A DNA stretch of 64,000 nt from Euglena gracilis (Eukaryota). Positions 15,529-63,840 of the stretch are shown here, piece by piece (the stretch's first letter is position 1; every line of letters starts with the position of its first letter). Below the pieces are notes generated by a model. That model was not told where the DNA came from and did no database searches. It saw only the letters and a program-made list of their open reading frames with translations. Made by a program: the position numbers and the translations under genes. The stretch lies in contig CP154954.1 in NCBI GenBank assembly GCA_039621445.1, positions 47,099,847 through 47,163,846 of the forward strand, in the 5' to 3' direction.

Positions 15529-15566
<38 letters not shown>

Positions 15567-24500: not shown

Positions 24501-27500
24501 AAAATGCCACTGAAAATCCAAGAAATTTCCAAGAAAAAAAATGTCCGTAAAATTTGAATGTTTCAAAATTTGGTCCCATTTTTTTGACCTGCATTTTTTT
24601 GACCACCCTCCTAAAAACGAACAATTTTCAACCCTAAAAATTTGGAGTTTTTTTGGGGGAAAAATGTATGTATTTTGGGTGTTCATTTTTCAAAACATTT
24701 TCAAAAAAACCCCGCCCTTTTCCTTATTTTTTTGGTTGAAGTGTATGGGGACAGGATTTTTTTTTTTTGCTTAAGGACCGCCCTGGTCAGTTCCATCACC
24801 CCCCCTTCAGGGAAGTTAACGTATCTCCTGAGGTGGCAGGAGCATTGGATTCTTGTGCAACGCGTTTGTTTTCTTTCTGCTTCCCCTTTTCCCTGTGGTG
24901 GGTTGGGGGGAAGAATTGTTGTTATTGTAGTTCAACTGTTACTGGTGTTGTGAGGTTATAAGGTTGGACGGTTTGGGAGAGTGCAACTGCTGCGCAGCAC
25001 TTTTGAACTTCACTGAAAATCAGTCACCCAGGTGCAGGGATGTGTGGGAAGCCTGCGGTGCTGAGGTAGGTGTTAGGAGGAGGGTCCAGACCCCTATCTT
25101 GCATTTTACCGTATCGACACCTTATATTGGGTAAGGTGGTGGGTCCGGACCGCCCTCCAGATGTTGGAAGGGGGTGTCTGGACCCACCCCCACTGCCTTT
25201 GGCAAGTTCCAAAAAATAGCGAAAAAATTTTCTTCCAGCACATACGCCAGAAAATGCAACAAAAAGGTCCCTTTCCTTATTTTCAAGCGTATTGCACATT
25301 TTTTGATGTTTTGGTGTTTTCCACATAAAAAATGAAAACAAGTACAAAGAATATTTTCGTTCTTGGATATTTTTTGAAGAAGGATCAGAGATTTTTTTCA
25401 ACATATTTTGCCTGGTATTGGGTCCTTGACCGTCAACAAAACCAAACAATTCCCCTGCCCTTTACGGTTTCGAGGTAGGAGGGAAGGTCCGAACCCCCCA
25501 GGGCTTCCCATACATCCCTGCCCAAGTGTGAAGGAAAACAAAATTGTGTTTTTTGCAACTTGTTGTTCGTTTCTTTTTTTTGCATTTTGTTTTCTTCTCC
25601 TATTGATTTTCTGTTCTGTTTGCTTCTTTGGATAGTATCAACCCAGTAATTTGGTAAAAGGCGACCTTTGATTTTTGCCAGACGCCTGCTTCGGTTTGGA
25701 GTTGCTGCCAACCCTCCTGCTGCCCCAACAGGGCTTGAGAAGGGCAGGCATCAGGGTGCGGCCCTCCTGGCTCAGTCCCCAGAAACAATTTCGCACAAAC
25801 ACGTTCATGCGCCATCTGTGCCTTGTATTAGTTTTGTGTAGCCTTGTTTTTGGGCCCCCAATTTTGTGCGATCTTTCACCATACGCATACATCACCACAC
25901 GCAAAGTCCATCATCAACGTCTTGCACATTCCCAAAATCAAATTCAAACCCAATGATCTCACGCCTGGAAGTTTTTTTTTGCCTTGAATACCGCCCAAAA
26001 GAATTGCCGTTTCAAAAAAGGAGTCATCAAAACAGGCAATATCATGGAGTGCGGCTCCATGACATTTCCCCTTCCCACCACGGCTTCGCATCCCTGGCCG
26101 GAGCCAACCGCCAAAACTTCGGAGCGGCCAAGCCCCCCCCCCCCCGCCCTAGGCGCTGGTGGAGGGCTCCGTCAAGGCGTTCGCAGACATGCTGCAGGAG
26201 ACGGCCACCACGGTGGTGGACGCCGGCACCGCCGCCCCGGCCGCCGCCAGCGTGCCCGTCGACTCCACCATCAAGTTCTCCCAGTTCTCCAAGGGTGTGC
26301 CGGGGAGGGGGGGGTGACAGGGGGGTCGACACGGGGCGGTGGGACGGTGTCGGCAACGGCACCGGCTGTACGGTGTTGCTGCTCTGTACTGCACTGCACC
26401 CCCGCACGACACTGACGAAGGGGTCCCGGTTCTGGGCATTTTGGGATTTTTTTTTGGATTTCAATGCCATCCAAGGTCCAGCCATCCTGCACAAGGAGAA
26501 AACCAAATTTGCACAATATTATAAATACCTTTTTTTCGGAAGGGCGCTTCCATTTGGAACACTTTGATTTTTGGAATTCCATTTAAATTATGTATTTCAG
26601 GGACAGGGGGCTCTGAATTTCATCTGGGGGGGATGGGGTTCGGGTGATGCACCAGCGCTTATTGCTGTTGTTTTTTTTCGAAGTTTCTATTTTATGAGTT
26701 TTTTCCTTTCATTTTTTCTTCCAGTGCTCCTCAAAGAAAAAACATGACATATTGTCTCCGTCAAATATTTTTTATGCTTTTTGCAAAATGTTTTCAGTGA
26801 AGCTTTTTTTTGAAAAGAAGTTACGTATATCCAAGTCCCCTCTCAAAAAAAAAAGAGCCAAGGGACAGAATTTGTTAGGGGGGAGTCCCAATCAGGGTTT
26901 TTTTTTTAAGTCTTGGACCCTCGGGGAGGGGGGAGGGGTCTGGCCGAGCCCTCCTCCCCCCCAGAGGGGGGTGGGATATACTTTTCGGCACCGAAAGCGC
27001 CAAAATTTTTTAAAAAGGTGCATTTTTTGCATTTTTCACGATTTTTTGGCCTTTTCGCGGGAAAAATGGGTTGGGTCCCTGGTTTTCGGGGAAAATTGTG
27101 TTGGGTTCCCTTGACCCCTCCCTGGGGGGGGCGCCCCCCCCCCCCAGGGGTAGTGGGTTGGTTGGGGGACCCTTCCTCCCCCCCCCCCGGTCTTAAAAAA
27201 ACCCCATACCACTCCTTAATCACAGTGGGGGGGGGTCTGGACCGACCCCGGAGGATTCCCCAGAAGTCAATTTTTTTCTTCCAGACCCCCAAAATGCCCC
27301 AAATGCCCAAAATGGCATTTGGAGTCGAAATGGGGACAGGGATTTTTTTTGCTCCAGCGCTTTGTTCCAGACCAAAAATGTTCCATTTTGGCTGTGTTTG
27401 TTACGGTAGAAGCCACCCCCCTTGACTGGAGGGGTCCAGCCCTTGTATCGAACCCTGGGGGAGTACTTTCATCAGATTTTTTTTGTGATTTGCCCCTTCG

Positions 27501-30500
27501 AAATCAAATGAGTGATCCGTACCGCTAAAGCATCACAGGGTCCACGCGTCCGTTCCATGTGGTCGGGGACCCAACTCCAACGAGCAACCCCACCTCTGGA
27601 TTTGCTTTTGACGACGCTGGCTTCCTTTCCCTGTGTGCTGCAGACAAACACAATCGACTGGAAGAGGAAGATGAGACGGAGGATCCGAGTGCCGCAATGC
27701 TTTCTGGGGTAAGCCCAGAAGCCCGGATCGGTATTGGGAAGGCATGCCCACAGGATTTGCTGCAATCCAGTTTCATGTGCGGATATCGCTGAGCATGGCC
27801 CTGGCCTGGCGAGAAGTTTCACAGCTCAGGGGCCCCTGGGGTCTATCTGGGGGCGGTCTTATATTTGGGAGGGGTAAATTTGGAGTTTGTTGCCCTCCTG
27901 CTGCAGGCTTCTGCTTAAGGGTTCGCAGTACCCCCCCGGGCTGCAGCTCGTCCAATTTTGGCTAGTGGAAATCCTAGTGGACCCCCCTTGGGGGGATCTG
28001 TTAGGACTAGTAGTAGCAGGACTATCCAGGTGGAGAATTTTTCCAGTGACCAGTGCGAAGTGCCGAGTTTTTTTGGACCCCCCAAACTGGCCAAAAAAAA
28101 TCTCATTTTGGTCAGTTTTGGTTGTTTTTTTTTTAGAACTAAATCAGCCAAAAAACCCATCAAAAACCTGATTTCCACCTTGGCGCAGCGCTGGAGGAAT
28201 TTTTTTTCCTATCGGGAGCCCCCAAGGGGGTCTATCAAGTCTATTTTTTTTCCAGTGTCTGTCTAAATGTCCACCCAGTGGACCCCCCCGTCCTTAAGAA
28301 AAGACCCGGCTGGGTGTCAGGCATTTGCCTTGCGGCAGCAGCACAGACCAGCCTTGCTGGAGCAAAGGGAAAGAAGAGCGCCTTCATTTCCCGCCTGGAC
28401 AGGTGTTCTGTTGCCTCCTTTCGCACGCCTGCAAGGCAAGGCAAGGCGCTGTGCTGCAACAATTCTGCATACGCTGGACTCTTGCCACTGTAAGTCAGTC
28501 CTGGCAGCACCCCCTCTGTGTGCCGGGCCGCAGGGTCATCCAGCTGACGGGCTTCTCCGACCCGGTGTATGCGGAGGCCATGGTCACCGTCAACCAGTTC
28601 GACATCTCCCTGGACATCCTCGTCGTCAACCAGTCCTCCCACCCAAGGCATTGCTCAAAGGATATGCAAAGAAGTTGGAATTGCAAGAAGTTGTGAAAAA
28701 TTTATTTCTTGTTTCTCTTGCTCTTTTGGATACCTTGAATCGAGGGGGTGGGTCTGACTGTGAGGCTGAAGGGTGGTGCTCTACATCCAAGTGGAAAAGC
28801 ACTCATGTTGCATGTGCTTTTCCGTGGATTCATTGTCGGTTTTGATGGTTCCTGGACTTCCGCATGTTGTCTGCACATCTACACCCACAACTTGCTGGAC
28901 TGGCTGGAGGCGAAGCAAAGACGTACCCACAAGGGAAATTGTGAGACCCCCCGGGCGGGGAGGGGGTCCAACCCCTTCAGGGAAAAAGGTGCTGGTGCCC
29001 CCACAAAAGATCCTTGGGCAGACTGCGCTGTAACTGTGCATTCTTTGGTAAAAAAAAATGAGAATAGAAACACCGAGTGCCTTTCTTCCAGTTCCCAGGT
29101 AGCTGTTTTTCTGGGGGTTGGACATTTCGACACGCAGCGGTATGATGGGGGAGGGGGTCACCCCCCCCCCCCCAAAGCCTTCCCGACAGCTTTGGGGGTC
29201 CAGCTGACTGATGGGCTGGACCCAAAGGCAAAGAAGCAAATCCAGCTGAGAATTTCCGTAGGAGAAAAAATGCCCCAAAACACACCCCTCCCATCGCCCT
29301 TTATTAACCCTTCACATTTCTGCCGGAAACGTCTGGGCCTTGGCTAGAGCCAGCGAGCTGCAACTTGGACCTGCAGCTTTGTTTTCATTCATGAAAATAA
29401 GTCCAAAGGTGTTCCAACTTATCGCCCACAACTCGTTGGTTGTTCTCATCAAAATCCAATACTTTGTTAAGCGTCATAGCGCAATCTGCTACACAATGGT
29501 GCGCATGGGAGATTTGCTGCAAGAGTGGGTGCTCCATTGGGAGGTTTGCAACTATGCGCTGAATCGTGTTAGTGGGGTGTACGGGGGTATCCCAACGTGG
29601 GGTGTACGGGGGGTGTCCCCTAGGTCTTCCGCATCATTGTCCATGGGTTGAACGGTACCTGCGTTTGCGGGCACCATGCAACGCATTTCTGGATGTCAGG
29701 GCAATGTGGGAAAGGACCCAGTATCAGGTATTGCTGGCAACTGTCCGTAAGGACTTGGGGGGGGAGCGCAGGGGGGAACACCCTTCCCTCGGCTAGTGGA
29801 AAAGGACGCTGGTTTCCTGGATTCCCCTGGGTGGGGGGGGGCAGTGTCCGTTTCACTCCCTCACAGTTTTAACGTTTTTTTGTTTTCCTCTTGTTTTATT
29901 TTTTTGTTTGCATTTTGTGCAGTTTTTATTTTATTATTTTTGAAAACCGATATGTTTCATGCTTGCACTCATTTTTTTCCTTCGATTTTTATCAATTTTT
30001 CACATGTCTTTGGCCCTCCGTATTTGCATTTTTTTGCATCTTTTCTTTCACATGCTTTTCAGGTCATCGCGAAAAAAGGGTCTAAATGTGGCGGAGTTGC
30101 AGCACAGATCCACATGCCTTCTTCATTCCTTCCCTCTGTTCGAATGGGAGGCGGTCTTATTACACATTTGATTCTCATTGCAATTGGTGGGCTTTTGGCC
30201 ACCTGAGGAAGAGTGCCTTGGGATCATTTGCTGCAAAGCCTCACGGTGGAGCTGGCGACCCAAGGGGACCTGAAGCTTTGTGAGCGGCCGGAGACATACA
30301 CGCTGGCCCCCAAGGAGCAGGTCAACATGCGGGTCAACATCAAAGTTTCGTCGACCGACACAGGTGTGATACGTATGAGGAACGTTTTAGAAACTCGAAA
30401 GAAAATTTTGCCCTTGACATTGGGGGGGGCATTCTAACTTGCCAGCGTTGTCTGAGGCACAGTTTGAAACACCTAATGGTAGAGGATGAAGGTTGGACGT

Positions 30501-30988: not shown

Positions 30989-31021
<33 letters not shown>

Positions 31022-31147: not shown

Positions 31148-31239
31148 GTGTCTGTGATATTGTGGGATCGCACCAGGGGGCCCATGGTGCCATGCTGGGA
31201 ATCGGTTTTGTGTGAGGGTTTGGCATACGAAGCAAAGAC

Positions 31240-31813: not shown

Positions 31814-34800
31814 TTTCACAAACAAGCGTACCAGAAACACTTTAGAGGACCGAAAGGATCACCACGACGCAACTGCTGGCTGGCTCCTTCTCCTTTGATG
31901 GAAAGGTGGCTCCGGAACGATTGACAGAATTTTTTTTTTGGTGTGAGAAGAGTTTCTCGTGGATCCCCCCAGATGGGTTGCTTCCCTAACGTCAACTGGC
32001 ACGATATTAACGTTGGGCCTGCAGGCTATGGTCGGAGGCTGCTGCGGAAAGGGTGTGCTGAGTTTAAAGATTCCCTGCAGGGGGATCCTGCATAATCCTG
32101 CATAGGTCTGTCTTTATAAATTCCTAAAACAGCAAAGAATACCCAACCATAATGGGTTTCAGAAGGACAGGAAAAACAATTTTCTGTTTCGCTTGATTGG
32201 TATTCTGTTAGGTGAGGAAATTGTTTTTCAATCATCCCACTTTTTTCTTGAAAATTTAATCAAAGAATTTTGAAGTTGAATTTTGGTACATCTCAAACCA
32301 ATTTGTGTCTTTGGTATTGAGTGTCAGAGAATTTTTTGGCACCATTTTCACAAAATATTCATCATCCTCATCAGCATTTTCCTGTTTTGAATTATTTTCA
32401 CAATAATCCTTCAGGGTCGATACATTTTCCACCTATTAAAGTTGGCTGAAATGCATTTTGTCAAGCTCCATCTTGTCTGGCAGCGCATTTTTGAAGTGCC
32501 GCTGAAAAGAATGGGCTGATGGTGTTTTTTTTTGATTCACAAAAGGCGACTTGCAAACTCTGAAAAAAAAAGATGTTTACAACCGCCAAAATCAAGCCCT
32601 CACTGGGGCCTAAAACTGACCCCCTCCCCCGGGGGGGGGGGGTGCCTGCTTTGCCAGAAGCGAAGCTAGTGGCGGCAATAAACAGGCAAGAAGCCTCAGT
32701 GCAGCCTAAGGGGGCTTTGGGCAGGCACCACATTGCACAAGGTGCCCCCCCTGGGCTTGACAGAAACGGATCTTTGGCTTTCACATATGCAAAAATGGCC
32801 AGAAATTGCAAAAATGGATCGGATTTGGGCTGGCCAGGGCAAATTTTGGGTCAAAAAACCCGTGTTTTTTTTTACACCCCTGGCAGTTTTTTGGGGCTTT
32901 TTTGGAGTTTCAATGTTTTGATCCCCGGTTCGACTCCCAGTCTGGCCCAGTTCCAGCCCGGGGGACCCCCATGGGGGGATTAGCCAGCAGCCTTATTCCA
33001 GCCAGCCCAAATTTTCCAGCTTCTGACCTGGACCCCCCTCCCCCTCCCCTCATTAAGCAATGCCCTGGTCTCAGGCCCAACCCCCATACATTCTGGGAGC
33101 ATAATTGGGAAAACGGTTGCGTCATCTTTTGCTTCCTTGTGGTTTTGTGTGGCGTTTGTAATTTTGGGAACTTTGAAAATTTTCAAAAAAAAACTTGTTG
33201 GAAAAGCTCTAAGGTTGAACCTGCCTCTGGGGTAGGGGTTTTCTTAAGCTGTAGGGGGCTTTGCTTCCTGGGGGGGTCCAGTCAGCCATCACTTTTTTTT
33301 TTTCAAGCCAGCACCTCCCAGCCAGGCTGTGGACCCCCCCCCCAGGGGTCCGCTGAAACAAAGTTTGGGCCAGCCCAGCAAAGCCAGCCTGGCAGAAAAT
33401 TTTTGAAGAAAGGGGGCAAAAAAAAATGGACAAAAAATGGCATTTTTGGGTGCTTTTTGGGGTTTCACTGCTGAAAAATGCCAACCCAGCTGTATTTCAG
33501 CTTTTTCGGGTGTTCTTGGGTACCCACCGGGTCCAGCTCCCAGCCGGCCGGACCCACCCCCCACTCACCACTCACCTGACAACTGGGCCAGAAGCGAAGT
33601 TAGCGCCGGCCATGTACAGAAAAGAAGCCTGAGTGCAACTAAGGGAGCCCAGCCAGCACCTTTTTCCAGCCGGCCCGCGGACCCCCCCCCCCCCCGGATC
33701 ACAAAAGCAGGTTGGTTGTAATTACTCAAGGAACATGGTTCTTCTCTCTTCTCTTTTGTTTCAGGTCTCAGGTTTCCGAAGGCTTGGAGAAAGGCCAGTT
33801 CACCTGCAGCACAGCGTACTCAAAGTCGAAGCCGCAGCAAGAGCCGCAGTAGAAGCAAGAGCCGAAGCAATTGCCGCAGCCGCAGCAAAGGCAGCCACTC
33901 CACGCGCAGCCGGTGTGTACTCCCCCGAAATATAGAACCAGTTCTAACCCTCGGAGGGGTGTTCCAAATTTGGTCAAGAATTTTGTCGATCCGAAGGTTA
34001 CCATTTTCCCCTCACCATGTGCAATAATTTAGACCATTTTTGGAGAGTATTTTGGTTGCTTTGGTTGGAATTGGTGGACGAAATTTATCAGGCAGCATTT
34101 ATTCAAAAAAATTGTCTCTGAAATTCCGAACCTCAAATTTTTTGGTGCTTTTTTATTCTCCGTTTCAAAACCCCCATTTCAGGGAGTGAAGTTCAAATAT
34201 TTGGTCGCTAAATCAAGGACCCCAGGAGGGTTCTAAACCACGCCCCCCCCCCACTTCCAACACCCCCCCACTTACTAACCCCCCCCCCCCACTTACTAAC
34301 CCCCCCCCGGCCGACCAACCAACGGGACTTATAAACCCCCCCCTTCGGGGCAGGAAAATGAAAGCCGCCGGGGCCGATTTTTTTTGGCCTCAAACCACCC
34401 AAAAACTGATTTTTGGCCCTTTTTTTGAGATCGACCATCATCAAAAATGCCATTTTTGACCAAATTTACCAAAAATTGCCATTTTGGGGGGGTTTCGGGG
34501 TCATTTTTGGGGTTCGGATTTTCACCAACAATTCCGGGACTTATAAACCCCCCCACTTACTAACCTCCCCCTTCGGCCGAGACCAAAAACCGGATCCTAC
34601 TAACCCCGGGGGTTTATAAGTGGGGGGTTTATATTTGGGAGGGGGGGTTCAATCTGTCTTTGTTCCTTGCACACAGGCATAATGATTTTTGGGCAATTTT
34701 GAGGCAATTTTTCATTTTTTTAAAGGTTTTTCAGGATTTTTTTTAAATTCATTTTTAATTTTTTAAAAATTTTAAGGCGTCTATTTTCCATGGGACATCA

Positions 34801-37800
34801 AAGAGCTATCCGGGCATCGAACCAACGTTGGTCCAGGCTGAAAATGAAAAGTCCAAAAACACATTTATTGGGTGGATGCACAATGTTCAAGGGATGCCAA
34901 AAACCATCTTTGTTCCCGGAGTTGGCTGTTCTTTATTTTATGACTTATTTTTACTAAAAAAAAAGTCAAGGTTTTCAAGGTTTTTAAGGCTTTTAAGCGC
35001 CTTAAGAAATTATTAGGCCTGCTTGCACCCCCCCCCCCGCGCACCATCCACAAAATGGTGCGAAATGATGAATTAAGGAAATACCGTCTCTTTTCTGCCC
35101 TTCCCCCCCTTTTTTCAAGCCACAATTTGTGTGGGTGCACAGCTTTAAATATCAGCAAACAGCATTTTGCAGGCAGTCCAGGCCCCATTGCTGCCACAGA
35201 GGCAGCCGCAGCGCCAGCCGCAGCAACAGCCGCCGCAAGGGCCCCAAGCAGGGATTTTTTTTTTTAAAGTTTGGGAGGAGGGGTCCATTGGACCCCCCCC
35301 CCAGGGGGGGGTGGGATGTCACGGGAGGTAGGTTCGTGGGAGGTAGGTGCCGCGGCCGGCCGGCCGTCCAACCAAAACATGGGGTTGGTTGGGCCGCGCC
35401 CGACCGCGACCCAACCATGGCCATATTTTGCTGTCAGAATTCCGATTTGGTTGGGCCCCAATCAAATTGCAAAAGGTTATCACAAAACAAAAAGATTTTA
35501 TGACGTTATTGAAGAAAATAGGGTTAGGGTTTTCCTTTTTGTGACTTCTTTTTATTTCCTTTCAAAATCCCCACAGGTTACTTAACTTAAATTGGGCACT
35601 TATACCCCCCCCCCCTGGCTAGGGCTTAGGGGGTTTTTTTTGTCACCACCCATTGATTGGGGAACCATTGTCAGAGGTTTTTTTAAAGGCTTTTCAGGCC
35701 AAGCATTTATTTTTGGGTTTGTCCCATGGTTTGTTGCCCAAAAGTTTACCAGGCCCCTCAATGTGTCCCCCATGTGGAAACAAATGAAAAACCAATCTTT
35801 TTCCCACTTTGGCTGTTTTTTTGTTTTTGATGTGGACTTTAGGGTTTTTTAAGGCTTTTTTAAAATTTTTAGTCCCCCCCCCGCTTCCCCCTTGGTGGTC
35901 GATGATACCCAAAAGGATACCCAGGGATGACTCTCACTTTTCCCCCCTTTTTTTTCCAGGTGTGGTTTGAAGATGCTAAATTTAGCAACAGCATTTTACT
36001 TGCAGTCCAGGCTGCTTGCCACAACCCAGCGCCAGCCGCAGCAACGCACCCCCAAGCAGGATTTTTTTTTAAAAATTTTGGGGTCTTTTGAACCCCCCCC
36101 CCCCCCAATGTCACGGGAGGTAGGTTCTTCGTCGGCGAGTCCCCCCCACAGTGGGGCCCCCCGGCCCGAGCCCCCAACCGGCGCTTTTTTGGTCTGGGGC
36201 CCCAATCAAACTTCACAAAATTTTATGACATTTTTGACATTTTGAAGGTTAGGGTTCCATGCAAACAGTTCAAACCTTCTCACTCAACTTCTGTATATTG
36301 GACTCTACAGGGTACTCAGCTAACCCAAAGAGCCACCCAATTAGGGTTAAAAACATGGGGGGACCTGAGCGGTGCGGAAGGCGCCGAGCGAGGGTCCCCC
36401 ATGTGTATTAACCCTAGTTGGGCGGCCTTCTGGGTTCGCTTAGTACCCTGTAGGAGCCAATTTAACCGCCATTGTGCGATGCAGTTCGCTGGGTCTGTTG
36501 TGGTTGGGTGGCCGCGGTCCAACCAAACCGAATTTCATGATTTCAGCATCGGAAATGGTTGGCCCTCAGCCCAACCAAGATTTTTTTGGGTTGGGCCGCG
36601 GCCGGCTGCGGTCCAACCAAAGCAGCAAAATGGTTGAGCGGCGCGACCCTACCTCCTACGCACCTACGTCCGCTTCCCCACCCCCCCCAGGGGAGTTCCT
36701 CCAAAGGGCTTGGTGGGTTTTGGCCACTTTTTGGCCTTTTTTGGCGCGAAGCGAATTTTTTTTGACCCCAGAATTGGCCCCCCAAAAGTGAGTCCCCGGA
36801 CCCCTCCCCCCAGGGGGGGGGTAGGGGTACCTTCTGGGTTGGTATGGGGGACCTCCCCCCGGTCTTAAAACAGTCCCTGGCCCCCAAGGCCGAGGGGGCC
36901 AGGGAGAAGCGGTCCAGCAGCCCCAGCCAGGCGAGCGAGCCGCAGCAGAAGAAGGCTCGCAGGTGTGCTTTTTTTTTCTGGATAACTGCTTGCTTTTGAG
37001 ATTTTGTTAAGTTGGCATAGGTTCATGGTGCTGGCAAATACCTTCTGCGATGCATTGGAGTAAGACAGGCATCTATTGTGGTTTTGCTGTCATGAACCAT
37101 CACTGGTTCTGCGGTATACTATTTTTTGTTGGGACCCATTTTCATCTGCAGTCCAAGGAAGAAATTACTGCAAATGATTCTGGGTGAAAATATCATGGGA
37201 ACAATATTTTGGGAGTATTTTGATTGTGAATTTTTTTGGGTAAAATGAATTTTTCATCCTGTGCCAAATCTTTTTCAGACCACATTGCAGCCAGAAAACC
37301 CTTTTCCCCAAAGTGTGGTGAGCAAACTGCTCAAAAATGAGTCACTCGCAAATATCATACACCGATGATGGCTGCTTTTGATGACTGGCCTGGTATGGCA
37401 TTTGAGGATTTCATTCGCCTTGGCTCAAGGAGGTGTTGAAAGGTGCAGAGGGAAGAAAGGCGGCGCCCTGCCGGGGGGGGGGGGGGTCTTTGTGAGGCCC
37501 TCCAGGGCCGGGCGGGGGGGGTGGGGGTAGGGCCTGTTGCCAAAAGTGCCTGGGCACTCGGGCAAGGCACTTCTGGCCAGAAACGCCCATTTTTGGGCAC
37601 TTTTTGGCACATGACCAGCAGGGGGGGATGGTGCCTGCCTGCCCAGGCATTCCAGGGCACTTGGTCAAATTCAGCCTGGTGAGGGTGTTCCCTGGATTTA
37701 GGATTGTGGTCGAAGTGAGGCTTTTTTCCTTGGACTTGAAATTGGGTGGGGGTCAAATATTATGGGAGGAAGTCACATCGAAAACTTTGATTTTCACACC

Positions 37801-40800
37801 CAAATCTATTTTTCTGGCGCTTGTTTTTTGTGCAAGTTGGAAATTGGAAAGTTGTTTGTTAGGGGAGAGGGGAGCCGACATACCTCCCCTCTCCCCCTCT
37901 TTGGCACCCTGCCTGCCCCAGGGCGGACTCCCAGGAGCGGGAGGCGGCCAAGCGGAAAGCCGCCCCGGGGCCCCACAAGGACCCGGTGCCCCGGAAGCTG
38001 TCCACCGCGACCCGCCGCGAGGCGCCGGCCCACCCGCCGCCCGGCTGGGAGCCCCCGCCGCCCCTGTGGGGCCCCCACCGGGGCGGCCCCCCCACCAAGG
38101 CCGCAGCCCAGCGGGGAAGGGAGAGGCAGGGCGACGTAAACGAGCGGTCCCACCCCGCCCGTGCATCTCCTTGCCTGGTGGGGGAAACTTGCACCCCCCG
38201 CAGATTGGCCAAAGGAGGCCGGATGAGAGCTGTGGCGGCGGAAAATTTTTCGACCATTGTTTTGCGTGTTTCCCCTCAAAATAGTCTTTTTGGAGGATTC
38301 CTTTTTTTCCTCGATTTCTTCTTGTTTGGGAAAAGACCACATGAAGAGCTTTTGCGTTCTCTTGTGTTCCCTCTTAATGCAGAGTTTTGGATCCAGGCTT
38401 CTTTTAAGGAAGGTCCCCCCCTTGGGTGGTGTGTGCAGGCAGGGGGGGGTATTTTTTTTAATAATCCCAGGGGTGTACCTTGTATGCAGGGGTGCCTGAC
38501 CATAGCAGGCACCGCTGGTCCAGACTGGGGTTGACCCAGGTAAAGTCGTTTTCGGGCTTACCCACTGCCCACCCCAAACCTGACCCTTCGGGGGATCAAA
38601 GTGCCTGCTTGGACCTGAAATATCCACCTAATTTCATGGGTTTCCTATTTTTGATGGCAAGGGATGACGATGTGGGTGCGAAGGTGGATGCCAAGCGAAG
38701 AATTGTTTGGGAGATGTCAAGTGGATGCACGGATCCGATGCACCAAGAGGGCGGAAGCCTCCGCCTCCTCCTCCGCCCCCCGAGGAAGATTGGGGACAGA
38801 CTTCAGCATTTGAAACGGAGGCCAAGGATACCTTTTGAAAACAGACTTCTTTTTAGCCCCCCCCCCCCCCAGGTCACCAATTGGAAAAAATTTTCTGCTT
38901 TCTGCCAAAAGCATGAAATGTGTTCCAAAGGTGCTTGGTTTGAGATATCCACAATGTCCTCCCACCAAATCAAGGTTCAAACGGTTCTGCAACACCGATT
39001 TTTTGAAAATATCACAAAAAAGGCAATTTTGCTGGAATCCCCCCCAAGGTCCCAATGTGGGGGATGGCAGAGTGGGTGCATGGAGGGGTTTCCCTCTATT
39101 TTCGTTGCACAGCCCCAATTTTTTTTGAACTCCAAATTGCCCCCCCCCCAAAGTGGGTGCTCCCCCTGAGAGTCCCCCTCTAAGGGGTGGGGTGGATGGG
39201 TCCGTACCCCCCAGATCCTGAAAAACCTCTGGTGCGAGGGGTGCAGTTTTTTGGCACGGTGTTTCCTATTTGCATGAATAGTGGTACAGAGCTTTGACAT
39301 GGAAGGGGTTGTGTTTTGGGGCAGGTGGAACATGAAAACAATTCGAACCATGTTTTTTTCGGACGGGGCCTAGCTTGGACCATGTATGTGCTGGCACCAT
39401 AGCAAAACGAGCAGATTTGGTCAAAGCCTGACACAATAGGCACAACTGTCATTTTGGCCATCCTGATGGGTTTTGCGGCGTTTCTTTTTTTGACGTTCTC
39501 CAGCGGCGTTTCTTTTTTGGGCATCTCCAGCGGCAGAAGTCTGTTGACCGACGACGTGCAACCCGACGCTGCCGCGAAGCACCGGAGGCCCAGCCATCGT
39601 CACGAGCAGCCGGCGGCTTCCCGTGGAAAGTGGGATGGCCCGGTGTCCTTTGCGGAGGAGCCCGCTGAGTGGGATGACCCTCCACCCCGGGAACGTGCGC
39701 CAAGGCCAGCACTCCACCCTGCTGTGTTCTTGAGACCACCGAATGAGCGTTAGTTAGTGAGTAGATTTGTGTGCCTATCATTAATTAGGGGGAGATATTA
39801 TTTATTTTGGGGTCCGTTGTTGCCCTCCCCCTTGGTGAGAAAGTGGGACTGCGCGTGTGCTTGTTTCTGACATTTCTCTTCGTCACTGCCCACATAGCGG
39901 ATATCTCCCAAAGAATGATCCCTCTGCTGCATACTGGTGAAGACAAACAAAAATGGCAGAAAAATCACCGGGTACATCCAAAAAAGGTGCATAGAAAAAT
40001 TGATGAATTGAGCCTGTATGAATTTCAAAAATTGTGGTCATTGCACAAAAAGTTACAAAAAATATTGGCCTGGAGAAATTGGCGAAAGAAATTTTGCAGT
40101 CATTTTTTGAGGTTGATAATCTAGCCCAACATCCCCCCAACCCCCCCCCCTGGGCTCTGACTTCGGTGTTCAAATCATTATTATTTAGGGGGAAACACTC
40201 AAGGGGTAGGATGTTGGTGAAGGTTTGAATTTCCAATCTTAGCAAAGCCCTCCACACCTTCCTGTTTTTTTTTCTCCCCTTTTCAGGGTGCCGATATACA
40301 TGTGGACTGAGGAGGATAGAGCTGAACACTGAAAATACAAAATGCCCAGACATGGAAATTGAAAACGGGCGATATTTCTGCCAAAAACCAGTGGGGACCC
40401 CCAGGGAATGATAGCAGCGAATAGCACACAAGAATCATGTCTTTGGAGTTGGGTCTGGGCTGCACAGGCCTCACACAATGCGCGTTGCAAGGGACCCTTT
40501 GGCACCACACCGGCAACCCTCCGTTCCGGCCATCACACGGGGAGTGCTGCCCGCAGCGGCCACGGCAGAGACAGGAGGCGGACCCTCCGCGCCGCCACGC
40601 CGACCACCGCAGCCAATGGGCCGAGGATCCCGACGAGGCTTTGTTTTCGGGCGGCCGCCGGTGGCCCTGGCAGGCCGGGGGGGGTCCAAAGCGCCCACCG
40701 TGTGAGGCACGCCACCCCAAGTGGTGGATGGGTGTCCCCCCAAGGGGGGGTCAAGCAAAGCCTGCTGGAGAGGCATACCCCGTCCCCACCGGGGGCCAGT

Positions 40801-43800
40801 ACGACCGCTACCCAGTCCCCTCCCCCCCGCGTCGGGGCCCCCTCTCCCCCCTGCGGAGGCCCACCGGGCCGCCCCCCGCCCCCCCCTCCGTCGTCGCGGC
40901 GGGATGCCGGGATGGCGCATGACCAGGGCTGAATGAGAACCCCAGAAACCTCATGGGTTTTGGTGAGTGGGGGGGGGGGGGTAGGTAGGGGTCGCCCCCC
41001 CTCAAACAGGCTTTCTCATGCAGCCCTGCGCCCGACCCCTACTCCTGGTCGCCTCCCCACCAGCCTGCCCGCAGAACCTCAACCCAGGACCCATACATGA
41101 GGCGTGCTGTGCATGCTCATTCTACTGGGAGGGGCAAATGTATATTTTTGTGTATTTCTGTTTGCCTTTTTCGATTTTGGCAAAATGTGGGGGGGTTGCG
41201 ATTTTTCGCTTCCCCCCACCGATTTCCTAATTTTTCCTGGGAATTTTTTTTGATTTGGAAAGATTGCATATTTCGGTCCAATCTTTTCTCTGAAGGATTT
41301 TCCATGCAACTTACGTTTGTTCTGTTTCCATTATGCCCCCTCTTGTGGACAGCCTGACAAAAAGCCATTGGTGAAGACACACCGGCTGCAGGCTTCTTTT
41401 TAAGCCCCCCCCCCCCCCCCGGGTGTCCCCCCCACCCACCCAGCCTGGCGCAGGACCCCCTGGACCCCCTGGCAGGACAGGGACTGAGGGCATCCCCAAA
41501 AAATTTTCGGGGCTTCGCACTGAAACCCTACCTGGGCCTCCGCCTGGGACTTCCTCCCTGGGGGGGAGGTCCCTGGACCCCCCCCCCCAGGGGGTCTTCT
41601 GACTTAAAAAAAAAAGCCTGATGCGCCGGTGCCTGGCCCGGGGTCGAGCCATTCACCCACCCACACACCCACCCACCCACCAGGCTGTAAGGCATGCCCC
41701 CCAACCCCCCCCAACCCAGGGAGTGGATCAAAGCGCCGGAAAAATTTTGGCCGTTGCATTTTCGGGCTTTTTTTTAAAAAAATCGGCCAAAATATGTGAA
41801 AAACTGGGGGGGAAGATATGGAATTTTTTGGTTCCGGGGGGGGGGGGGGGCGGGTCGGATCTGGGTCCCAGGAACTCCTGGGGGTGCCCACTAGGAAATA
41901 GTGACCAGTCGCCAGGAAGGAAGCCCCCAGAGGCTTGAGGACCAGGGGGGGCTCGGGTTTTTGGGAACAATTTTGGGTCAAAGCTTTTTTCGGTTTGTTC
42001 TTGAAATATTTGAAAACCCCCAGGACAGGGTGCTGGGTGTACAGGTTGCCATCTGGGCTTTCACGTACCTTGACTTCGCACAGAGCGTAGAGTTGTTTTT
42101 TTTTTGACTGTGGGGGGTTATGAAGAGCCAGAAAACAAAAGAAAACTGTTGGAATGAGATAAATGCAATTTCCAGCATTTTTTTTTGCAGAAAAAAGGTG
42201 ATAAGTGTCAACAGCACTGAAATCACATTTTTTTCTCTCTGCTGTTGAAAAAAGGATGATTAGCCTTTTCAAAGAAAGTGGATTCTTATGTGCTCCCAAA
42301 AAAATGAATGAGATTGGCGGGACAAAAATGCAGGAAATGACATGACCCTATCTTTTAAGGGTCGCCCCTCCCATGAAAAGAAAAACCCGTATCAGAGATT
42401 TTTTTAAAGTTTGGTTATCTGGGGCAGGGGTCCGCCCCCCCCCCCCCACGAGGGGTGGAGCGGGCCCAGTCGAGTGAAAATGAAGTTGGGGCAGCCTGCC
42501 ACAGCCCAGGGGTCTGGCTGGCCGGCCGGAAAAAGGGGCTAGCTGGACCCCCCCCCCCTTTCTTTGAGTGAGCCAGCCGGCTGCCGGGCTGGACCTGGCT
42601 GGAACCCAAAAGCCAGCAAAAGAACACAAATCCAGCTGTGTTGGGCTTTTTTTGGTCACATTGACCGTTTCCCCCTCTTTTCCTCTTCTCGGTGGACCTT
42701 AAAAATTCCGTGACCCAGTTCCCCCAACGGAAGGAGAGGGTGGCTGATGCATCCGCAGAGAGATTGACGACGTCTTACCCAGTGGATTATTTATCTGCAC
42801 AGGGAGTATGAGAGACAGTTGCCGCAACCACAACGAGAGCGCCATGGCCGGAGTTTGGGAGGTGTGTCGCCATGTCAAGAACACAGTTCAAAATAAAAAG
42901 TGGAAATGTGGAAAATGGAAAAAGTGGAAATGTGGAAAAGTAAAAAAGTGGAAAAAGTGGAAAAATACAAAGTGGAGCCCCAGTTTGTATTGGTGTCCAA
43001 TTGTATTGGTGTTCAGCGGATCCAAATATAAACCATGGAAAAGCCCTCCTGCTATGAATTCTCTTGAACCGCATTGTAGTGTCACTTTGCTTTGCGGTAG
43101 CAAAATAATGGAAAATGGAAGGCAAAAAGGGTGCCAGACCAGAGGGGTTGCTGCCAGTGCTGTGTGAGAAGCTTTGCACACCCACCCCAGCAAGTCCTTT
43201 TTTATCCAGCTCCCAATCCAGGACCAAAGATCAGAAAGAATTTGTGAGAATTTTGAAGTGCCTCGAACCACAAGAAAGAAGCCCGCGTCTTTATGGTGTG
43301 TTTTCTGTCCATGACCGACGCTGGGGTTCCCCTCTCAGGAGAGCACAGTCCTCCACACGTCAGCCGCCGGAGCCCCACTCCCCCACCGAAACGGGCCTAT
43401 GCCCCGCCCCCGCCGCCGGACGAGTACGCCGACTACCGGCGGCCGGAGCGGGAACGGCGGTGGGAGCGCCGCGACCTGGACAGCGAGCAGTACTGGGAGC
43501 AGCGGAGGGAGGAGGGCCGGGGGGAGCAGCGGGACGGCCGGGGCCGGCAGCCCGACTGGCGATGGGGTCCGGAGCCATGGAATGGCCGGCCCTATGCCCA
43601 GGCAGCAACTCCGGAGCTCCGACGCGTGAATTCTTGGTCTCGGCGTTGGGAATCCCTGTCATGCAAAGGTCCATTACAGTCTTGGACTGCCAACGGCTTA
43701 TTTCATTCTTCTGGTTGGCAGTTTTATTGGATTTATTGGCACAACAATTTTTTTCATAAATAAGTGTGCTGTGATTTTCAAGTGCCTGAAAATTCAAGCA

Positions 43801-47855: not shown

Positions 47856-50800
47856 CTCGGGACACCCCGGGCTCCGCACTTTACCCTTGTGAGGCCATGC
47901 TTTTCTCGCCGACGGTGCTGTGTGATTGCTAGCTGCGCTTGGTTAGGGTACCCGGTTAGTTCCTTTTTTTGGCCGGAGTTGGCTGACTCTTAAATTGCCC
48001 TTCGACAACCCGGAATTGAGGAAGTGAGTTTCAAACGCAGGAGAACCAAAAGGACAAGTCAATGTCAAAAAAATATTCAGAAGTAGACGAGCCAGACGAA
48101 TTTCAATTGACAAGTCAATTATCAATTTCAAAATCGGCTTCAATGAACAATGAAGTGGGGATGAAGCTTGAATTTTTCGGTCGACGCGAACTACCTGGAG
48201 CAGCTGTCGCCGTGGCAGCCGGAGGACCTGGAGGTGCAGACGACATGTGGCGAACCGTGGCCGCCCCCCGATCCCACCGTCAGAAATTTCCCAGCAGAAA
48301 ATCCAACCGAGTGACGGCCACGGCCTGTGGACCACAGTGGCGAGAAAGACCAGAAGAAAGAAGGAACCCCCAGCGCAGCAGAAACGCCTGGGCATTGGAG
48401 CCCAATCAAGCAAGATGGGACAAAAGCAGACCAGAGGATTCCAAAGACATGTTCCACAACGGCGCCCAGTCGCCAGAACACAATTTGAACAGAAGTGGAG
48501 AAGATGGAAGCAAGGCCAAGGTGGAGGCCACGTTGGCCAATTCCAAAAGAAATTACCTTCAGGAAGGGGCAGAAGAGGTCTGCCAAATCCCCCAAACTTT
48601 CTAAAACAACTACCCATCCAAAGGGAAGGGGGGGGAGGCACAGCAACCCCCCAAGCTTTCAAGCGGAGCTGGAGACCAACGTCAAGCTCAGGTGAGATCA
48701 TAGCCAAGGAGGCCAGAGTTCGAATCATTTGCTTTTGCACGGCCATGGAGGTCATTATCTTCATGGACATGGCAGCCATTATCTTCAGGACCAAGATGGC
48801 CAGAACTCACAGGGCCATGGGAACCAAAGGGGTGTTCCATAACTGGCCCCCCAGAAGCAAAGCTGCTAACCTTATCATATCAATCAATTCCAGCAGCCCC
48901 AGGAAGATGCCCCAGACAGGGAAAAGGATGACAAGGGATGATTAATTCTTTTTTCCCATGGAAGGGGAAATCAAAGGGGGCAACTTGAAGGGCCCCTCTA
49001 TGGTATGTAAGCAGACAACCGGAATGAAAAGATGGAGGACCAGAGAGTCTGTGAGAGAGAGGGTGTGTGCATGAACACCCCCATCAATTACATTCTTTTC
49101 AAACCCTGGGAAATGAGGGTTGTGAAATGTCCCAAAGCCCCAACCCATATCCCAGAAAATTAATTGATCAAGGGAATAAATTCATTGGAGGAAAAGTGGG
49201 GGGACACCCCCTTGCACCAGAGACTGCAAAAAAGTCCAAAATGGCGGCTGAAAAATGCCCCCCTCCCCAGCCACCTGCCAACTCATAAAAGATAGCATTC
49301 ACCCCCCCCCCTTGGGTCAAACCCCCAATATTATCCACACATCCAAAAAAACAGAACCAACCTGGACCTGAAACAGGCCGAAACAATCCTGTCGGACTAC
49401 AAAACAATGGGTCCAGAAAGAGGGTTCAGGATTCAGGAACCCAACATCTAATTCCCTGATTCCTGATATCAAAGCCAGAAGGGGAACAAACGAAGTGGAG
49501 GTTCATAAGCGACTGCAGGGAAATAAACCAAACTTCTCCCGTGAAAGATTTTCAAAGTAGATCACATTCAAAACATTTTCCCAGTTTTGCATAAAGGCCA
49601 CTGGGCGGCAAAAATCGACTTAAAAGGCGCATATTTTCACCTTCCAGTGAACCCAGCCCCAAAACCCTTTCTAAAGCATCAGGTGGGGGGCAAACCTGGG
49701 AATTCCAGGCAGGCTGTTTTGGCCGAAGTGTGATGCAACAAATTTTTATGTCAGTCATGAAGACATTCGAAAAACGTCGGAGGAAAAATGGACTCCAGGT
49801 TTTATTTACCTGGACGACATTTTATTGGTTGCACCCACCCAAAATAAATTGCAAAAACACTTGAGCAGGGTGGTCAGTGACCTAATCGATTCGGGGTTCA
49901 AAATAAATGTCAAAAAGTCAACCTTGAAGCCCACACAGGTTGTAAGCCACTTGGGCTTCCAGTTAAATTTCCAAGAGGGAAAATGCAAATTGCCCCCCGA
50001 AAAGTGAAAACAATAGAAAAGGAGCTTAAAAAAACAGCGAAAAAAGATTTCATGTCGAAAAGGCAGTTGGCTGCCAGGCCAAATCAGGTGCAACCTCATG
50101 GCCCTGCACCTTTTATTTAAGGGCTTTCACAGATCCCCTGACAACATTTTGGGTCTAAAAGTCTGCAGCCGCATGGGACTCAAAGCATTCCATTTCACAG
50201 AACATAAAAGCCCATTTGATGGAAACATAAAATCTGCTAGACACCTGGAGGGAGACCTTTCCCCCAAAGTGCAACAAGGGGTTTACACTGCGACAGGAGC
50301 ACCCATTCCTGGAGGGGGGGGGGCTGGACGTTCATGTCCCGGAGTTTGGAGAGAGAGCTCCATTTTTCATGTCAATATAAAAGAATTACGTGCCATCAGC
50401 ACAGTGAAAAGTCTAAGCAGGCCAGGGGAAACGGTGGACAATCAGGTGATTTATTATTTCCTGACAAAGGGGGGGGGCAGAAAAGGCCCTTTCAACAGCC
50501 GTCTACGGCCATTTTTCAAATGGTGCAAGGAAATTCTTTAAATCTACAAGTGAAATGGGTTCCTTCAGAGGAATGCTTAGCAGACCCCATAAGCAGGTGG
50601 CAATAAGACAGGGGGGATCACTCACTCCCAGCTCTTTCAGTGGCTAAGGCTGCATTTCAAAGACTTCATAAATTTGGAAACAGATTTATTTGCCTCCCCA
50701 GGCAACAAAAAACTGACAAATTTTGTAGCCAGATGGCCCCACTGAGATGCCACAGCAGTGGAAGCTCTCCAATGCCCACTGACAACATTGGGGACTATAT

Positions 50801-52380
50801 GCCAACCCCCCCCCCCTGTCAATAATTACAAAATTCCTCCCATGATTGAAAATTTTCCCCCAGACCGAAGTTTTGATGGTCACCCCGTTTTGGAATTCAG
50901 CCACGTGGTGGCCCCAATTATATTAATAAAGATGAAAGTTCCAGGGACCACCTGCGTGAAAATGCATGATTTGCTCAGGAAAAATATTGGATGGGGAATA
51001 AATACAAATAAAACCATTGAATGTTTCCTGTGGAGAAATCCCAGCCTAAGGCGTTATCAAAGCGGTTTTGCGCTTCTTTGGGTTATTTTGGAGAAAATGC
51101 CCCCCCACCCCCTAAAGCCACCACAGACCAAGTGGCTGACGCCTTGACCTAAATATTCTAATTTTCAAAAACCCAGGCCAGTAATACATACAGGGTTAGG
51201 GTTAGGGTTATGGTTAGGGTTAGGGTTAGGGTTAGGGTCAGGGTTAGGGTTAGGGTTAGGGTTAGGGTTAGGGTTACCGTTAGGGTTACGGTTTGGGCTA
51301 GGTTTAGGGCTATGCTTTTGATCTCTGGGTTTGGTGGACTGAGATTCCACACCATGTTAGCACCTTACCAAAAGACTTTGGAACCAAAACTTGGAGAAAT
51401 ACGGTGCATTTTCGGACACCCTCCCAAAACCCCCTCCGAATACTCCAAGGGCTGGCCTAAGCTCCCTTCCCCAGTGATATTTGTACATTGCGTACACAGC
51501 TCATTTTTTGTGCCCGAATCCTCTGTTTTTCTCGACCTTCTGATTTGGAAAGAATCAAGCGTACAAATTTGGCGTAAAGGCCCAAAGCTCCACAAGTGGG
51601 AGAGAGTTGTGACACTTCCCCAATGTCCACAAATCAGCCCTTTTCATTTGATGATGTCCTATGTGGCTGCCACACGTTCATACGTCAGACCTGGGGTTGC
51701 CCTCCTCATTTCACTAAAACCCCCTCATAAAACCATAAGTGCTGACACAATTGCTTCAATGACCGAAGATTATTTGGCCAAAAAAGAGGCACCCCCCAGG
51801 TGTGGGGGACCCATTGCACCAGAGGGGCTGGAGTTAGTTTACTCAAAAAATTAGGCCTTTCTGCCCAAGAAGTTCGTGAAATTGGCCAGTGGAGGAGGGT
51901 GGAGGCATTTACAGCCCATTATCAACGACTTGGTTCCCAAGGTTCCTTAGAAAATGCCCTGCCCCCCCTAATTCTAGTGCGCAATCAGGCCTCACAAAGG
52001 GCAAAGTGTGGAGCCCAAGGTGTCTCGTACTCCCTCGAGGAAAACCGACAAGGGAGGAAGGGACACCGAGGGCGAACCACAAAGACATTGTGAGCCCGAC
52101 CCGCCCACCCGTGAAAGAAAATTTGTTTTCAAGAGCCCTGGGTCAAAAGAAAACGGGAGCCAGGGACCCCCCCCCCCCGAGGAGCAAGAAGCCACGTCGC
52201 CACGTCGGAGCAGCATCATCAGCCAACCGGGGACTCCTAACCCAGCGCAGCGAGCAATCATACAACACCGCCGGCGAGCAAGGCATGGCCTCACAAGGTT
52301 TTTGTGCTTCGACCTCGGTGTCCCTTCCTCACTTGTCGGTTTTCCTCGAGGGCGTACAAGAGGGCAGCGGAGGCTGGGGA
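47856..52380 (+). mobile_element. DIRS-type tyrosine-recombinase retrotransposon, decayed (copy A)
   Basis: RT remnants (KIDLK near 49610; YLDDILLV at 49807), RNase H (HVNIKEL, WVPSEECLADPISR), DLFASPG methyltransferase-like motif, YR (WGTHCTRGAG, IGQW); inverted terminal sequences 47860-47960 versus 51988-52030 and 52225-52298; many frameshifts. Confidence 0.85.
51192..51309 (+). repeat. Interstitial telomeric repeat (TTAGGG)n
   Basis: About 19 units, decaying at the 3' end, inside the YR ORF of DIRS copy A. Confidence 0.95.
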
Positions 52381-62400: not shown

Positions 62401-63840
62401 GGGTACCTTCCCAAGGGACTGGTTTTATGGCTCCTGCCTGAAAATAGTCTTGTATAATACTTTTTGCCTTTTGTATTTCCACCTTTGACTTTGGTATGGA
62501 ACATGTGCTGAGGGAGAGGGGTCACTCCCAAGGGGGGGTTACCCCCTGTGCGATGAGTTGCAACACCCTGGGGGGGCAACCTTTTGCCACCATGGCAGCT
62601 GGTCCTGAAGCCTCTTAAACAGAGGCACTCCCAGAAAGTGCTCCTCTGTCAGCAGCAGCACCTCGGTGATCTGTTCCAGAGATCTCAAGCTTGCAGCTTC
62701 CCACAGCGTGCAGATGTCTTGGCTTCTGCCCCTCAGGCTGGTTGACTTTGTGGCACAATGCCCAGCTCTGGGGGACACAATGTCCTTTTGGGACTTGATG
62801 AGTTCTGACTGAAAAGGAAGGAGCAATACTTCCTGGCAAGGTGTTGGGCAAACCATTTTCCTCCTTTGGACTTGCCTTTCCCTTTGGGGCCAGACCGCCA
62901 TGGTCTCGGTTGCCAATTTGTTTGCCATTGCTTGAACTTCCACACTTTTCCACCTGTGGGGGTGGGTATATGCCACATGGGGAACTCACCCATGAAGGGG
63001 GATTTGATACCCTCTTTGTTGATGCCAGCTTGGGCTTTGGCCATTTTGATGTCTTCAGGGGTGAACAGGCCATTCCCTGGCTGTATGGTCTGAGGGATGC
63101 TCCTCCTCTTCCTCTCCTTGACAATGTGCCCTTCACAGGCAGCCACATATGCGAATAATTGTTGGCTCAAACCCAATATGTCTTCAGGGGCTCCTTGTAA
63201 GGTGCAGTGCAGCGCTGCCAAGATACGCAGTATGTTCAAGAACTTCTGCTGGACTGCACGCATGGTGCGGTCATACCCACTCTTACCGTCTTGACGGTGG
63301 TTGTTTTCCTCCGCTTTGGGCTTCAGGGTCTTCCAGGTGGGTATCTGTTCCAGCAAACTTCGTACTTCCAACCGTAAGTCCCCAGACTGTACCTGTGTGC
63401 ATATCCCCTCCAGGTCCCCCGGCAGTGCCTCCTCGGCCGTCTGCAAGGGGAAGTCCTGGGCTTCCTCCGCCGCGCGCGCTGCCTCCTCGTCGCGATCCAT
63501 CTCCGCCGCCACCGTCGTCGCCCACTTCTCGTACAGCTTGAATTCTGAGCTCCAATGACGGTATCGAGACGTTCTTCGTGAGTGAGACGCTGTAAAGGTA
63601 CCGCAAGATATGGTTGTAGGTTACACTCCACCATAGCCACTCCAGTGAGCTTCCGTGCGGCAAGGGCACATCGGGCTGTATCCAACCCTGCTCCAGTCCA
63701 CTTCTTACCTGAGCCAAATCGTGGCCATCACGGCGGTAGCGTCGGCATCTGGCAAGAAGGCTGTTGTCAGCGATTCTTGTAAGAAAATGTTGCTCCACGC
63801 CGCTTCGAAAGCCTCTTTGTCGGTCTCGTCTTGCAGGTGC
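59440..63840 (-). mobile_element. DIRS-type retrotransposon, best-preserved copy (C): gag, RT, RNase H, methyltransferase-like domain, tyrosine recombinase
   Basis: ORFs 62733-63512 (gag-like), 62015-62482 (AKVDLKDAYFHL, FGLN), YLDDIILMG near 62030, 60968-61786 (GWGG, HINVKEL, VDMFASPGN, YANPP), 60155-60733 (YR, LHRSVDL); 3' inverted repeat 59491-59553 / 59774-59837; frameshifted. Confidence 0.9.

Follow-up and report, generated by a model that had tools for sequence, protein, structure and literature searches.

Euglenids carry GT-AG introns alongside so-called nonconventional introns, which make up 71.8% of the introns of Euglena agilis, a species in which 84.4% of all introns have short repeats at their junctions (PMC12501133). 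Knock-in mutagenesis in Euglena gracilis has yielded a code for the nonconventional class, 5'-N3CDG…CH'GN5-6/R (here and below, a slash within a sequence marks a splice junction), to which an obligatory pairing beside the two motifs is added, and fully synthetic 50-bp introns following this code were spliced (Nomura et al. 2025, PMC12501133). Among the members described is a recently gained one, gapC intron 4 of E. agilis ACOI 323, the junctions of which bear eight-nucleotide direct repeats (Milanowski et al. 2016, PMC4770533). An origin of nonconventional introns from miniature inverted-repeat transposable elements, or MITEs, was proposed in 2014, without any euglenid transposon then known (Milanowski et al. 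2014, PMC3935182), and their origin was still called unclear in 2018 and in 2025 (PMC6221363, PMC12501133). Here, we describe a 105-nt element at positions 40924-41028 of a 64,000-nt stretch of E. gracilis DNA (assembly GCA_039621445.1, contig CP154954.1, positions 47,099,847 to 47,163,846 of the forward strand; hereafter the window, to which all coordinates refer). The evidence supports its being a non-autonomous DNA transposon of the MITE kind, with inverted ends that begin with CAGG and an 8-bp target-site duplication (TSD), and, as judged from the sequence, we give a slightly better than even chance that it is excised from a plus-strand transcript as a nonconventional intron of 113 nt (40921-41033).

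Sequence inspection and a repeat finder delimit the element by two arms of 16 nt each, CAGGGCTGAATGAGAA on the left (40924-40939, plus orientation) and TTCTCATGCAGCCCTG on the right (41013-41028, minus orientation), with 73 nt between them. The preliminary description of this locus had reported a 16-bp terminal inverted repeat; both arms lie where it placed them, but they are complementary at 15 of 16 positions (94%) and not at all 16. Small and non-coding, with stops in all frames, the element has a core composed of a G-run, GGTCG and a C-run, its centre reading G13-TAGGTAGG-GGTCG-C7. Directly abutting it are the 8-mers CGCATGAC (40916-40923) and CGCCCGAC (41029-41036), the left and right copies of the putative TSD, which agree at six of eight positions, just as had been claimed. 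Both mismatches fall on positions 4-5 and hence, again in line with the earlier claim, within the right-hand five nucleotides that would be intronic. The minimum-energy fold of 40911-41043 includes the terminal stem, and scans of the window with Rfam models and for tRNAs returned no match in either case. As a separate observation, interspersed repeats in which long G-runs and C-runs surround a GGTCGAC-like core are abundant throughout the window (for example at 8600-8800, 18700-18835, 20590-20720 and 22600-22860), and the centre of the element follows the same design.

The predicted intron equals the element plus three and five nucleotides of the duplication. It reads gac-CAG…CTG-cgccc/G on the plus strand and displays every sequence feature of the published code: three free nucleotides and then C-D-G at positions +4 to +6 (gac CAG, 40921-40926), CTG at 41026-41028 followed by the spacer cgccc (41029-41033), a purine as first base of the downstream exon (G at 41034), and 15 of 16 Watson-Crick pairs that start exactly at CAG and CTG. 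The borders proposed earlier (…CAT/GAC…) are those that the code predicts, and the length of 113 nt was confirmed from the sequence. Because GAC is repeated at the junctions, the proposed intron can slide by up to 3 nt, which gives four possible registers with the borders GA..CC, AC..CG, CC..GA and CA..AC, none of them GT-AG, GC-AG or AT-AC. Taken together, the ends of the element and its duplication support the view that it makes up a complete candidate nonconventional intron and is, by its sequence, intron-competent. In anatomy it does not differ from the nonconventional introns known from euglenids (PMC12501133, PMC3935182, PMC4770533), with which it shares non-GT-AG borders, CAG at +4 to +6, CTG at -8 to -6, spacers of 3 and 5 nt, a purine starting the next exon, a terminal stem and a slidable direct-repeat junction; its own excision is a prediction. 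The candidate does not found a class of its own but belongs with the nonconventional introns already known from euglenids, whose derivation from MITEs was suggested as early as 2014.

Since the ends are palindromic, the opposite strand yields a reading that also obeys the code (gcg CAG…CTG gtcat/G), and a minus-strand transcript might lose a nonconventional intron running from 41031 down to 40919. We consider this very unlikely: on the minus strand from 39.5 to 44.5 kb, the set scores are reached by a single donor (40257) and by two acceptors, none of which frames the element, and it is the plus strand that has the strongest splice signals as well as the codon-position pattern.

Within the window, the element has relatives. 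We scanned for inverted repeats of the form C-D-G…C-H-G with at least 10 of 12 positions paired and a span of 40-3000 nt, excluding low-complexity arms, which resulted in 350 candidates (a first scan for code-compliant hairpins, allowing G-U pairs and 3-kb spans, had been dropped, chance alone giving thousands of matches). Five of the 350 had abutting 8-mers that matched at seven or more of eight positions, three of them perfectly, as compared to none of 350 when the flanks were shifted outward by 8 nt and 2 of 2314 cases in ten simulated windows. The three with perfect duplications are a free MITE with CAGGCTTGTGCT… arms and the duplication ACCGGGAC inside a conventional intron of a coatomer gene (22584-22864), a free MITE with CAGGGG… arms and the duplication CCCTGGGG (23107-23365), and a free 1235-bp element with CAGGGCGGTCC… arms and the duplication GTCAGTTC (23551-24785). 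Duplications matching at 7/8 flank a free MITE that has the arm motif of our element (CAGGGATGTGTGGGAA; 25035-25520) and another with CAGGCATAATG… arms (34674-35021). The arm motif of our element (CAGGGCAGAACGGGAA) also terminates a 636-bp, low-complexity element with 6/8 flanks (21909-22544), further copies of which lie at 18265-18835 and 20593-20752. Counting these six, the element under study and a coatomer intron at 7822-8972 (see below), eight elements have arms of 13-19 nt and begin with CAGG, the exception being CAAG on the 3' arm of that intron, and several CAGG-ended elements are repeated elsewhere in the window by blastn. A single conventional coatomer intron (21811-26152) holds five of them (21909-22544, 22584-22864, 23107-23365, 23551-24785 and 25035-25520), and on the plus strand four of these five would themselves obey the nonconventional-intron code.

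An a priori search for the arm of the element at up to three mismatches recovered 10 sites against 0.73 expected, a number that none of 100 shuffles reached; two of the sites are the element's own arms and two look like chance. The motif of the left arm, CAGGGnnGnnnGnGAA, is common to nine aligned termini, i.e. the two of the element and seven others, although this recurrence pattern was derived after the fact, and two pairs of the termini that share it bound elements with flank repeats. Membership in a family of terminal inverted repeats is shown by the arm motif, found at seven other termini in the window. No second full-length copy of the 105 bp was found in the 64 kb, where blastn-short gave poly-G matches only and blastn with seven elements only the self-match of the one studied here. 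The reading we favour is that of a MITE of fairly young age, from a group with CAGG ends that duplicates 8 bp of its target.

How readily might such an arrangement arise by accident? At 24 loci of the window, inverted repeats with a spacer of 20-300 nt reach 15/16 or better, as compared to 0.35 loci expected from 20 first-order Markov simulations, so that the genome is rich in such repeats and the repeat taken alone is unremarkable here. The locus might then be a chance hairpin with chance similarity of its flanks, neither transposon nor intron, a reading that draws on the commonness of G/C-runs and inverted repeats, on a fold energy that is not unusual for a composition rich in G- and C-runs (z = -1.64), and on the missing second copy. 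Yet only 0.35 repeats of this kind are expected per window, a flank match of at least 6/8 occurred in less than 1% of controls (2 of 350 with shifted flanks, 18 of 2314 simulated), and the arm motif recurs at the seven other termini, with the two pairs bounding flank-repeated elements. We give this explanation very little credence; the element's anatomy is real and departs from chance.

The window, which is eukaryotic and intron-rich, also contains a positive control for the use of nonconventional introns. A coatomer beta-subunit gene occupies 1003-31147 on the plus strand, with at least 23 exons, and its best relatives are euglenid transcriptome proteins, first P0001 (GGOE01019192), from the transcriptome of Euglena longa (GGOE01; bioRxiv 10.1101/573709), and then proteins of Eutreptiella and Rhabdomonas. 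Identity to P0001 was 85% over the query including intron flanks and mostly 86-100% over unambiguous exon stretches, being lower where the match runs into an intron. Overall, the exons share about 95% of their residues with the E. longa protein, which places the source of the window very near that species. With agreement between the spliced translation and P0001 as the criterion, 22 introns could be positioned, of which 15 had a GT-AG solution and seven did not. Among the seven, 1204-1369 and 9005-9285 follow the code strictly, 7358-7770 (CAA with TTG) and 7822-8972 (CAG with TTG) retain its 3/5 register but have motifs that are weaker, and three are off-code, namely 9587-9659 (CTG with CAG, 3/3 spacers), ~27685-28347 and ~28636-30228. 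Introns of this sort are thus in use in this genome, in a conserved gene that lies some tens of kilobases from the element. Good stems are also present in the last two off-code introns, in other registers (GCCGCAA with TTGCGGC, and CCCAAGGCA with TGCCTTGGG).

Nonconventional intron 4 of this gene (7822-8972, plus strand, placed by homology to P0001), 33 kb upstream of the element, has the same architecture. Its ends, CAGGCC…GGCTTG, pair at about 15 of 18 positions, and its flanks carry a repeat, tccagAGC and TCCAAagc, that matches at seven of eight positions in the same register of five exonic plus three intronic nucleotides. The flank 8-mers of the other three in-register coatomer introns match at 1/8, 3/8 and 1/8. 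A terminus of the element's arm family (CAGGGCTGTGTGGGAA) is located at 7860-7875, 38 nt inside intron 4, which points to one insertion nested in another; no partner was found for this end.

We then considered what excision would do to a plus-strand transcript. TGA triplets at 40920, 40930 and 40934 close all three forward frames, and removal of 40921-41033 joins a putative start and two codons, ATG GCG CAT (40912-40920, plus strand, with G at -3 and +4), to GAC CCC. Connected to 41034-41101, 42803-42861 and 43339 onward, this results in an open frame of 186 codons, which makes the preliminary description's combination of stop removal and in-phase linkage to three downstream exons arithmetically correct. 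All three putative exons lie on the plus strand. The first (41034-41101) is open, is rich in Pro, Arg and Tyr like the later ones, has a GC content by codon position of 0.55/0.64/0.77 and ends at a GC-type donor, gag/GCGTGC, with a score of 7.7 (12.5 if it were GT). The second (42803-42861) has a strong conventional donor, gag/GTGTGTC, which scores 12.1 (training range 3.0-12.7). The putative last exon (43339-43763, frame A) is rich in Arg, Glu, Pro and Tyr, GC-rich up to ~43625 and AT-rich thereafter, and coding-like in its GC content by codon position (0.80/0.63/0.82). A C-rich tract followed by AG (40844-40858, plus strand), 53 nt before ATG 40912, is a candidate spliced-leader or cis acceptor and scores 10.0. 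The splice-site matrices behind these scores were built on no more than 15 introns and are noisy: the donor at 31148, a real one, scores 4.5. Some 0.6 kb upstream of the element, a possible conventional intron of 64 nt (40223-40286, plus strand; aag/GTTTGA…TTTTCAG/gg, scores 9.9 and 10.7) hints at plus-strand splicing signals in that area.

Splicing at the locus could in principle be conventional, given that the element contains GTGAGT at 40963 and a CAG at 41021-41023 and that a GT-AG intron might use this pair (40963-41023, plus strand). However, the donor scores -0.5 and the acceptor -0.1, as compared to training minima of 3.0 and 6.3, the resulting 61 nt would be shorter than all 15 mapped conventional introns (minimum 104 nt), and each start tried meets a stop. 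Moreover, if this pair were used, nonconventional excision would lose the right arm on which it depends. On account of the splice-site scores and the stops in the frames tried, we rejected this pair as a conventional intron, an idea that has next to no credibility.

Several observations weigh against excision of the element from a coding transcript. In addition to the unremarkable fold energy, the lack of a second full copy and the agreement of the minus strand with the code, all mentioned above, only three codons precede the proposed intron, and the in-phase joining, which chance would give in 1 case out of 3, is for this reason weak evidence. At 40904 there is an ATG that is out of frame, codon periodicity was not seen upstream of 40912, the main exon is open in each of its three frames, and the acceptors at 42802 (4.3) and 43338 (5.0) score below the lowest training value of 6.3. 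A phmmer search with the 95-aa exon, in one frame, returned no match at E<=0.001 among 1.84 billion representatives, leaving the gene model without homology support, and no Pfam domain was found between 31 and 49.6 kb in a scan of 89 frames of the window (37 + 52). The other six long-armed elements of the same type all lie in non-exonic DNA. In three of the four validated nonconventional introns whose stems were compared, the pairing runs are shorter (6-11 bp) than in the element. Finally, the last 116 coatomer residues (830-945) were not found on either strand of the window.

This last result bears on where the element sits. Exon 23 of the coatomer gene ends at the donor cag/GTGTCT at 31148, and either the next intron, from 31148 onward, may exceed 32.8 kb or this copy of the gene may be truncated; with residues 830-945 absent beyond a donor, the element may lie inside a very long coatomer intron. 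It could thus be a MITE in non-coding DNA, whether this is such an intron, a discarded 5' outron or intergenic sequence, in which case no coding sequence would be interrupted and excision would have no consequence; the gene, if real, would start at ATG 41097. A rival acceptor at 41060-41074 (plus strand), with a score of 8.7 and followed by the in-frame ATG 41097, would place the element outside the mature mRNA. The non-exonic location of the six relatives, the lack of periodicity upstream of 40912, the ATG at 40904, the absent coatomer 3' exons and the lack of homologues of the putative protein fit this picture as well. On the other hand, 41034-41099 is open and resembles the later exons in composition (GC content at third codon positions 0.77), ATG 40912 has its G at -3 and +4, and the acceptor at 40858, with 10.0, outscores that at 41074. 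We judge a purely non-coding location to be unlikely, though clearly worth retaining, and continue to favour, by a modest degree of belief, excision of the element as a nonconventional intron.

In comparison with intron gain described elsewhere, the element is most directly likened to gapC intron 4, being a young candidate intron with 8-nt direct repeats (here 6/8). The gain of the gapC intron was proven by an empty site in other strains, whereas for the present element a gain is putative, and while the authors of that study favoured double-strand-break repair as the source (PMC4770533), the free elements with 8-bp duplications in our window point to transposition. As in the introners of Micromonas and Aureococcus, a MITE-like insertion would create the intron and the target duplication would contribute to the junctions (PMC11282704). 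Those introners, however, bring along or recruit GT/GC and AG and depend on the spliceosome for their removal (PMC11282704), whereas the element has GA..CC borders and would rely on base-paired CAG and CTG; the GT/GC…AG borders of spliceosomal introner elements do not occur in any of its four registers. The non-canonical introners of the dinoflagellate Amoebophrya have direct repeats of 3-5 nt and no fixed terminal motif (PMC7789003), as opposed to the fixed CAG and CTG, the fixed 3/5 register and the 8-nt repeat of this euglenid element.

Among transposons, an 8-bp TSD and short terminal inverted repeats liken the element to hAT and Merlin. An 8-bp duplication is typical of hAT and is present here, but an autonomous transposase copy with matching ends was not found in the 89 frames of the window. 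Indeed, the Pfam scan detected no transposase domain, an absence from 64 kb that says little about the genome; its matches at E<0.001 were confined to Adaptin_N, from the coatomer gene, and to fragments of reverse transcriptase, and two weaker matches were of chance level. Merlin has been reported in E. gracilis, with a duplication of 8-9 bp and ends starting 5'-GG (PMC8101967). The duplication length fits, whereas the ends of the present element begin with CA and have GG at positions 3-4.

The window holds other repeats. The region upstream of the coatomer start and the 5.7-kb intron of that gene contain long, near-perfect palindromes whose arms measure 20-48 nt (215-292, 2214-2329, 2478-2568 and 4285-4341); they lack 8-bp flank repeats, and several have CAG/CTG-type ends. 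Hairpins of ~330-350 nt with arms of 45-67 nt are found at 52027-52357 and 59487-59840, near retroelement remains, of which they may be terminal structures. The Pfam RVT_1 fragments map to 49675-50007 (plus strand) and to 61836-62648 and 62015-62521 (both minus strand); the minus-strand block at 60-63.6 kb looks like a frameshifted retroelement, and similar pieces occupy the plus strand at 50-58 kb. Short tandem repeats at 14500-14760, 15500-15570, 30990-31020 and 51170-51290 give rise to periodic peptides (TILYY…, CVCV…, THTH…, RVRV…).

Returning to the favoured reading, nonconventional excision of a transposed element, we propose the following course of events. A MITE would have inserted and duplicated 8 bp of its target, the duplication thereby supplying three nucleotides before CAG and five after CTG. 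A plus-strand transcript presumably runs through the element, whose stem would bring the two junctions together, and the piece would be cut out, in circular form according to the literature. Excision would restore the sequence present prior to insertion, …ATG GCG CAT/GAC CCC…, and so open the 186-codon frame across three further exons. Given a duplication of 8 bp and code spacers of 3 and 5 nt, it would remove the element along with exactly one copy of the duplication. This leads to a more general suggestion, which we advance tentatively and rate somewhat short of an even chance: an 8-bp TSD may have left its mark on the code in the form of the fixed spacers of 3 and 5 nt (3 + 5 = 8), and nonconventional splicing may amount to the precise excision, at the RNA level, of one CAGG-ended superfamily of transposons, hAT-like or Merlin. 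The link does not appear in the Results and Discussion of PMC12501133 or in the passages of PMC11282704, PMC3935182, PMC4770533 and PMC6221363 that matched the terms sought, nor did full-text searches return it, subscription papers and supplements being outside the scope of this survey.

Seen in this light, the window would hold a series that begins with free copies, located inside ordinary introns and flanked by perfect duplications, continues with the element at 40924-41028 as a candidate young insertion into an exon (6/8) and with the established intron 7822-8972 of a conserved gene, still at 7/8, and ends with old introns in which the duplication has worn away (1/8). Taken singly, a nonconventional intron is nothing unusual in Euglena. 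Within 40 kb, however, the window brings together the candidate intron, one that is validated, and free transposons that share with them their ends and 8-bp duplication, a side-by-side series that bears on the origin of nonconventional introns and makes the MITE hypothesis testable genome-wide. The 8-bp duplication would, in addition, explain in a simple way why the spacers follow a 3/5 rule.

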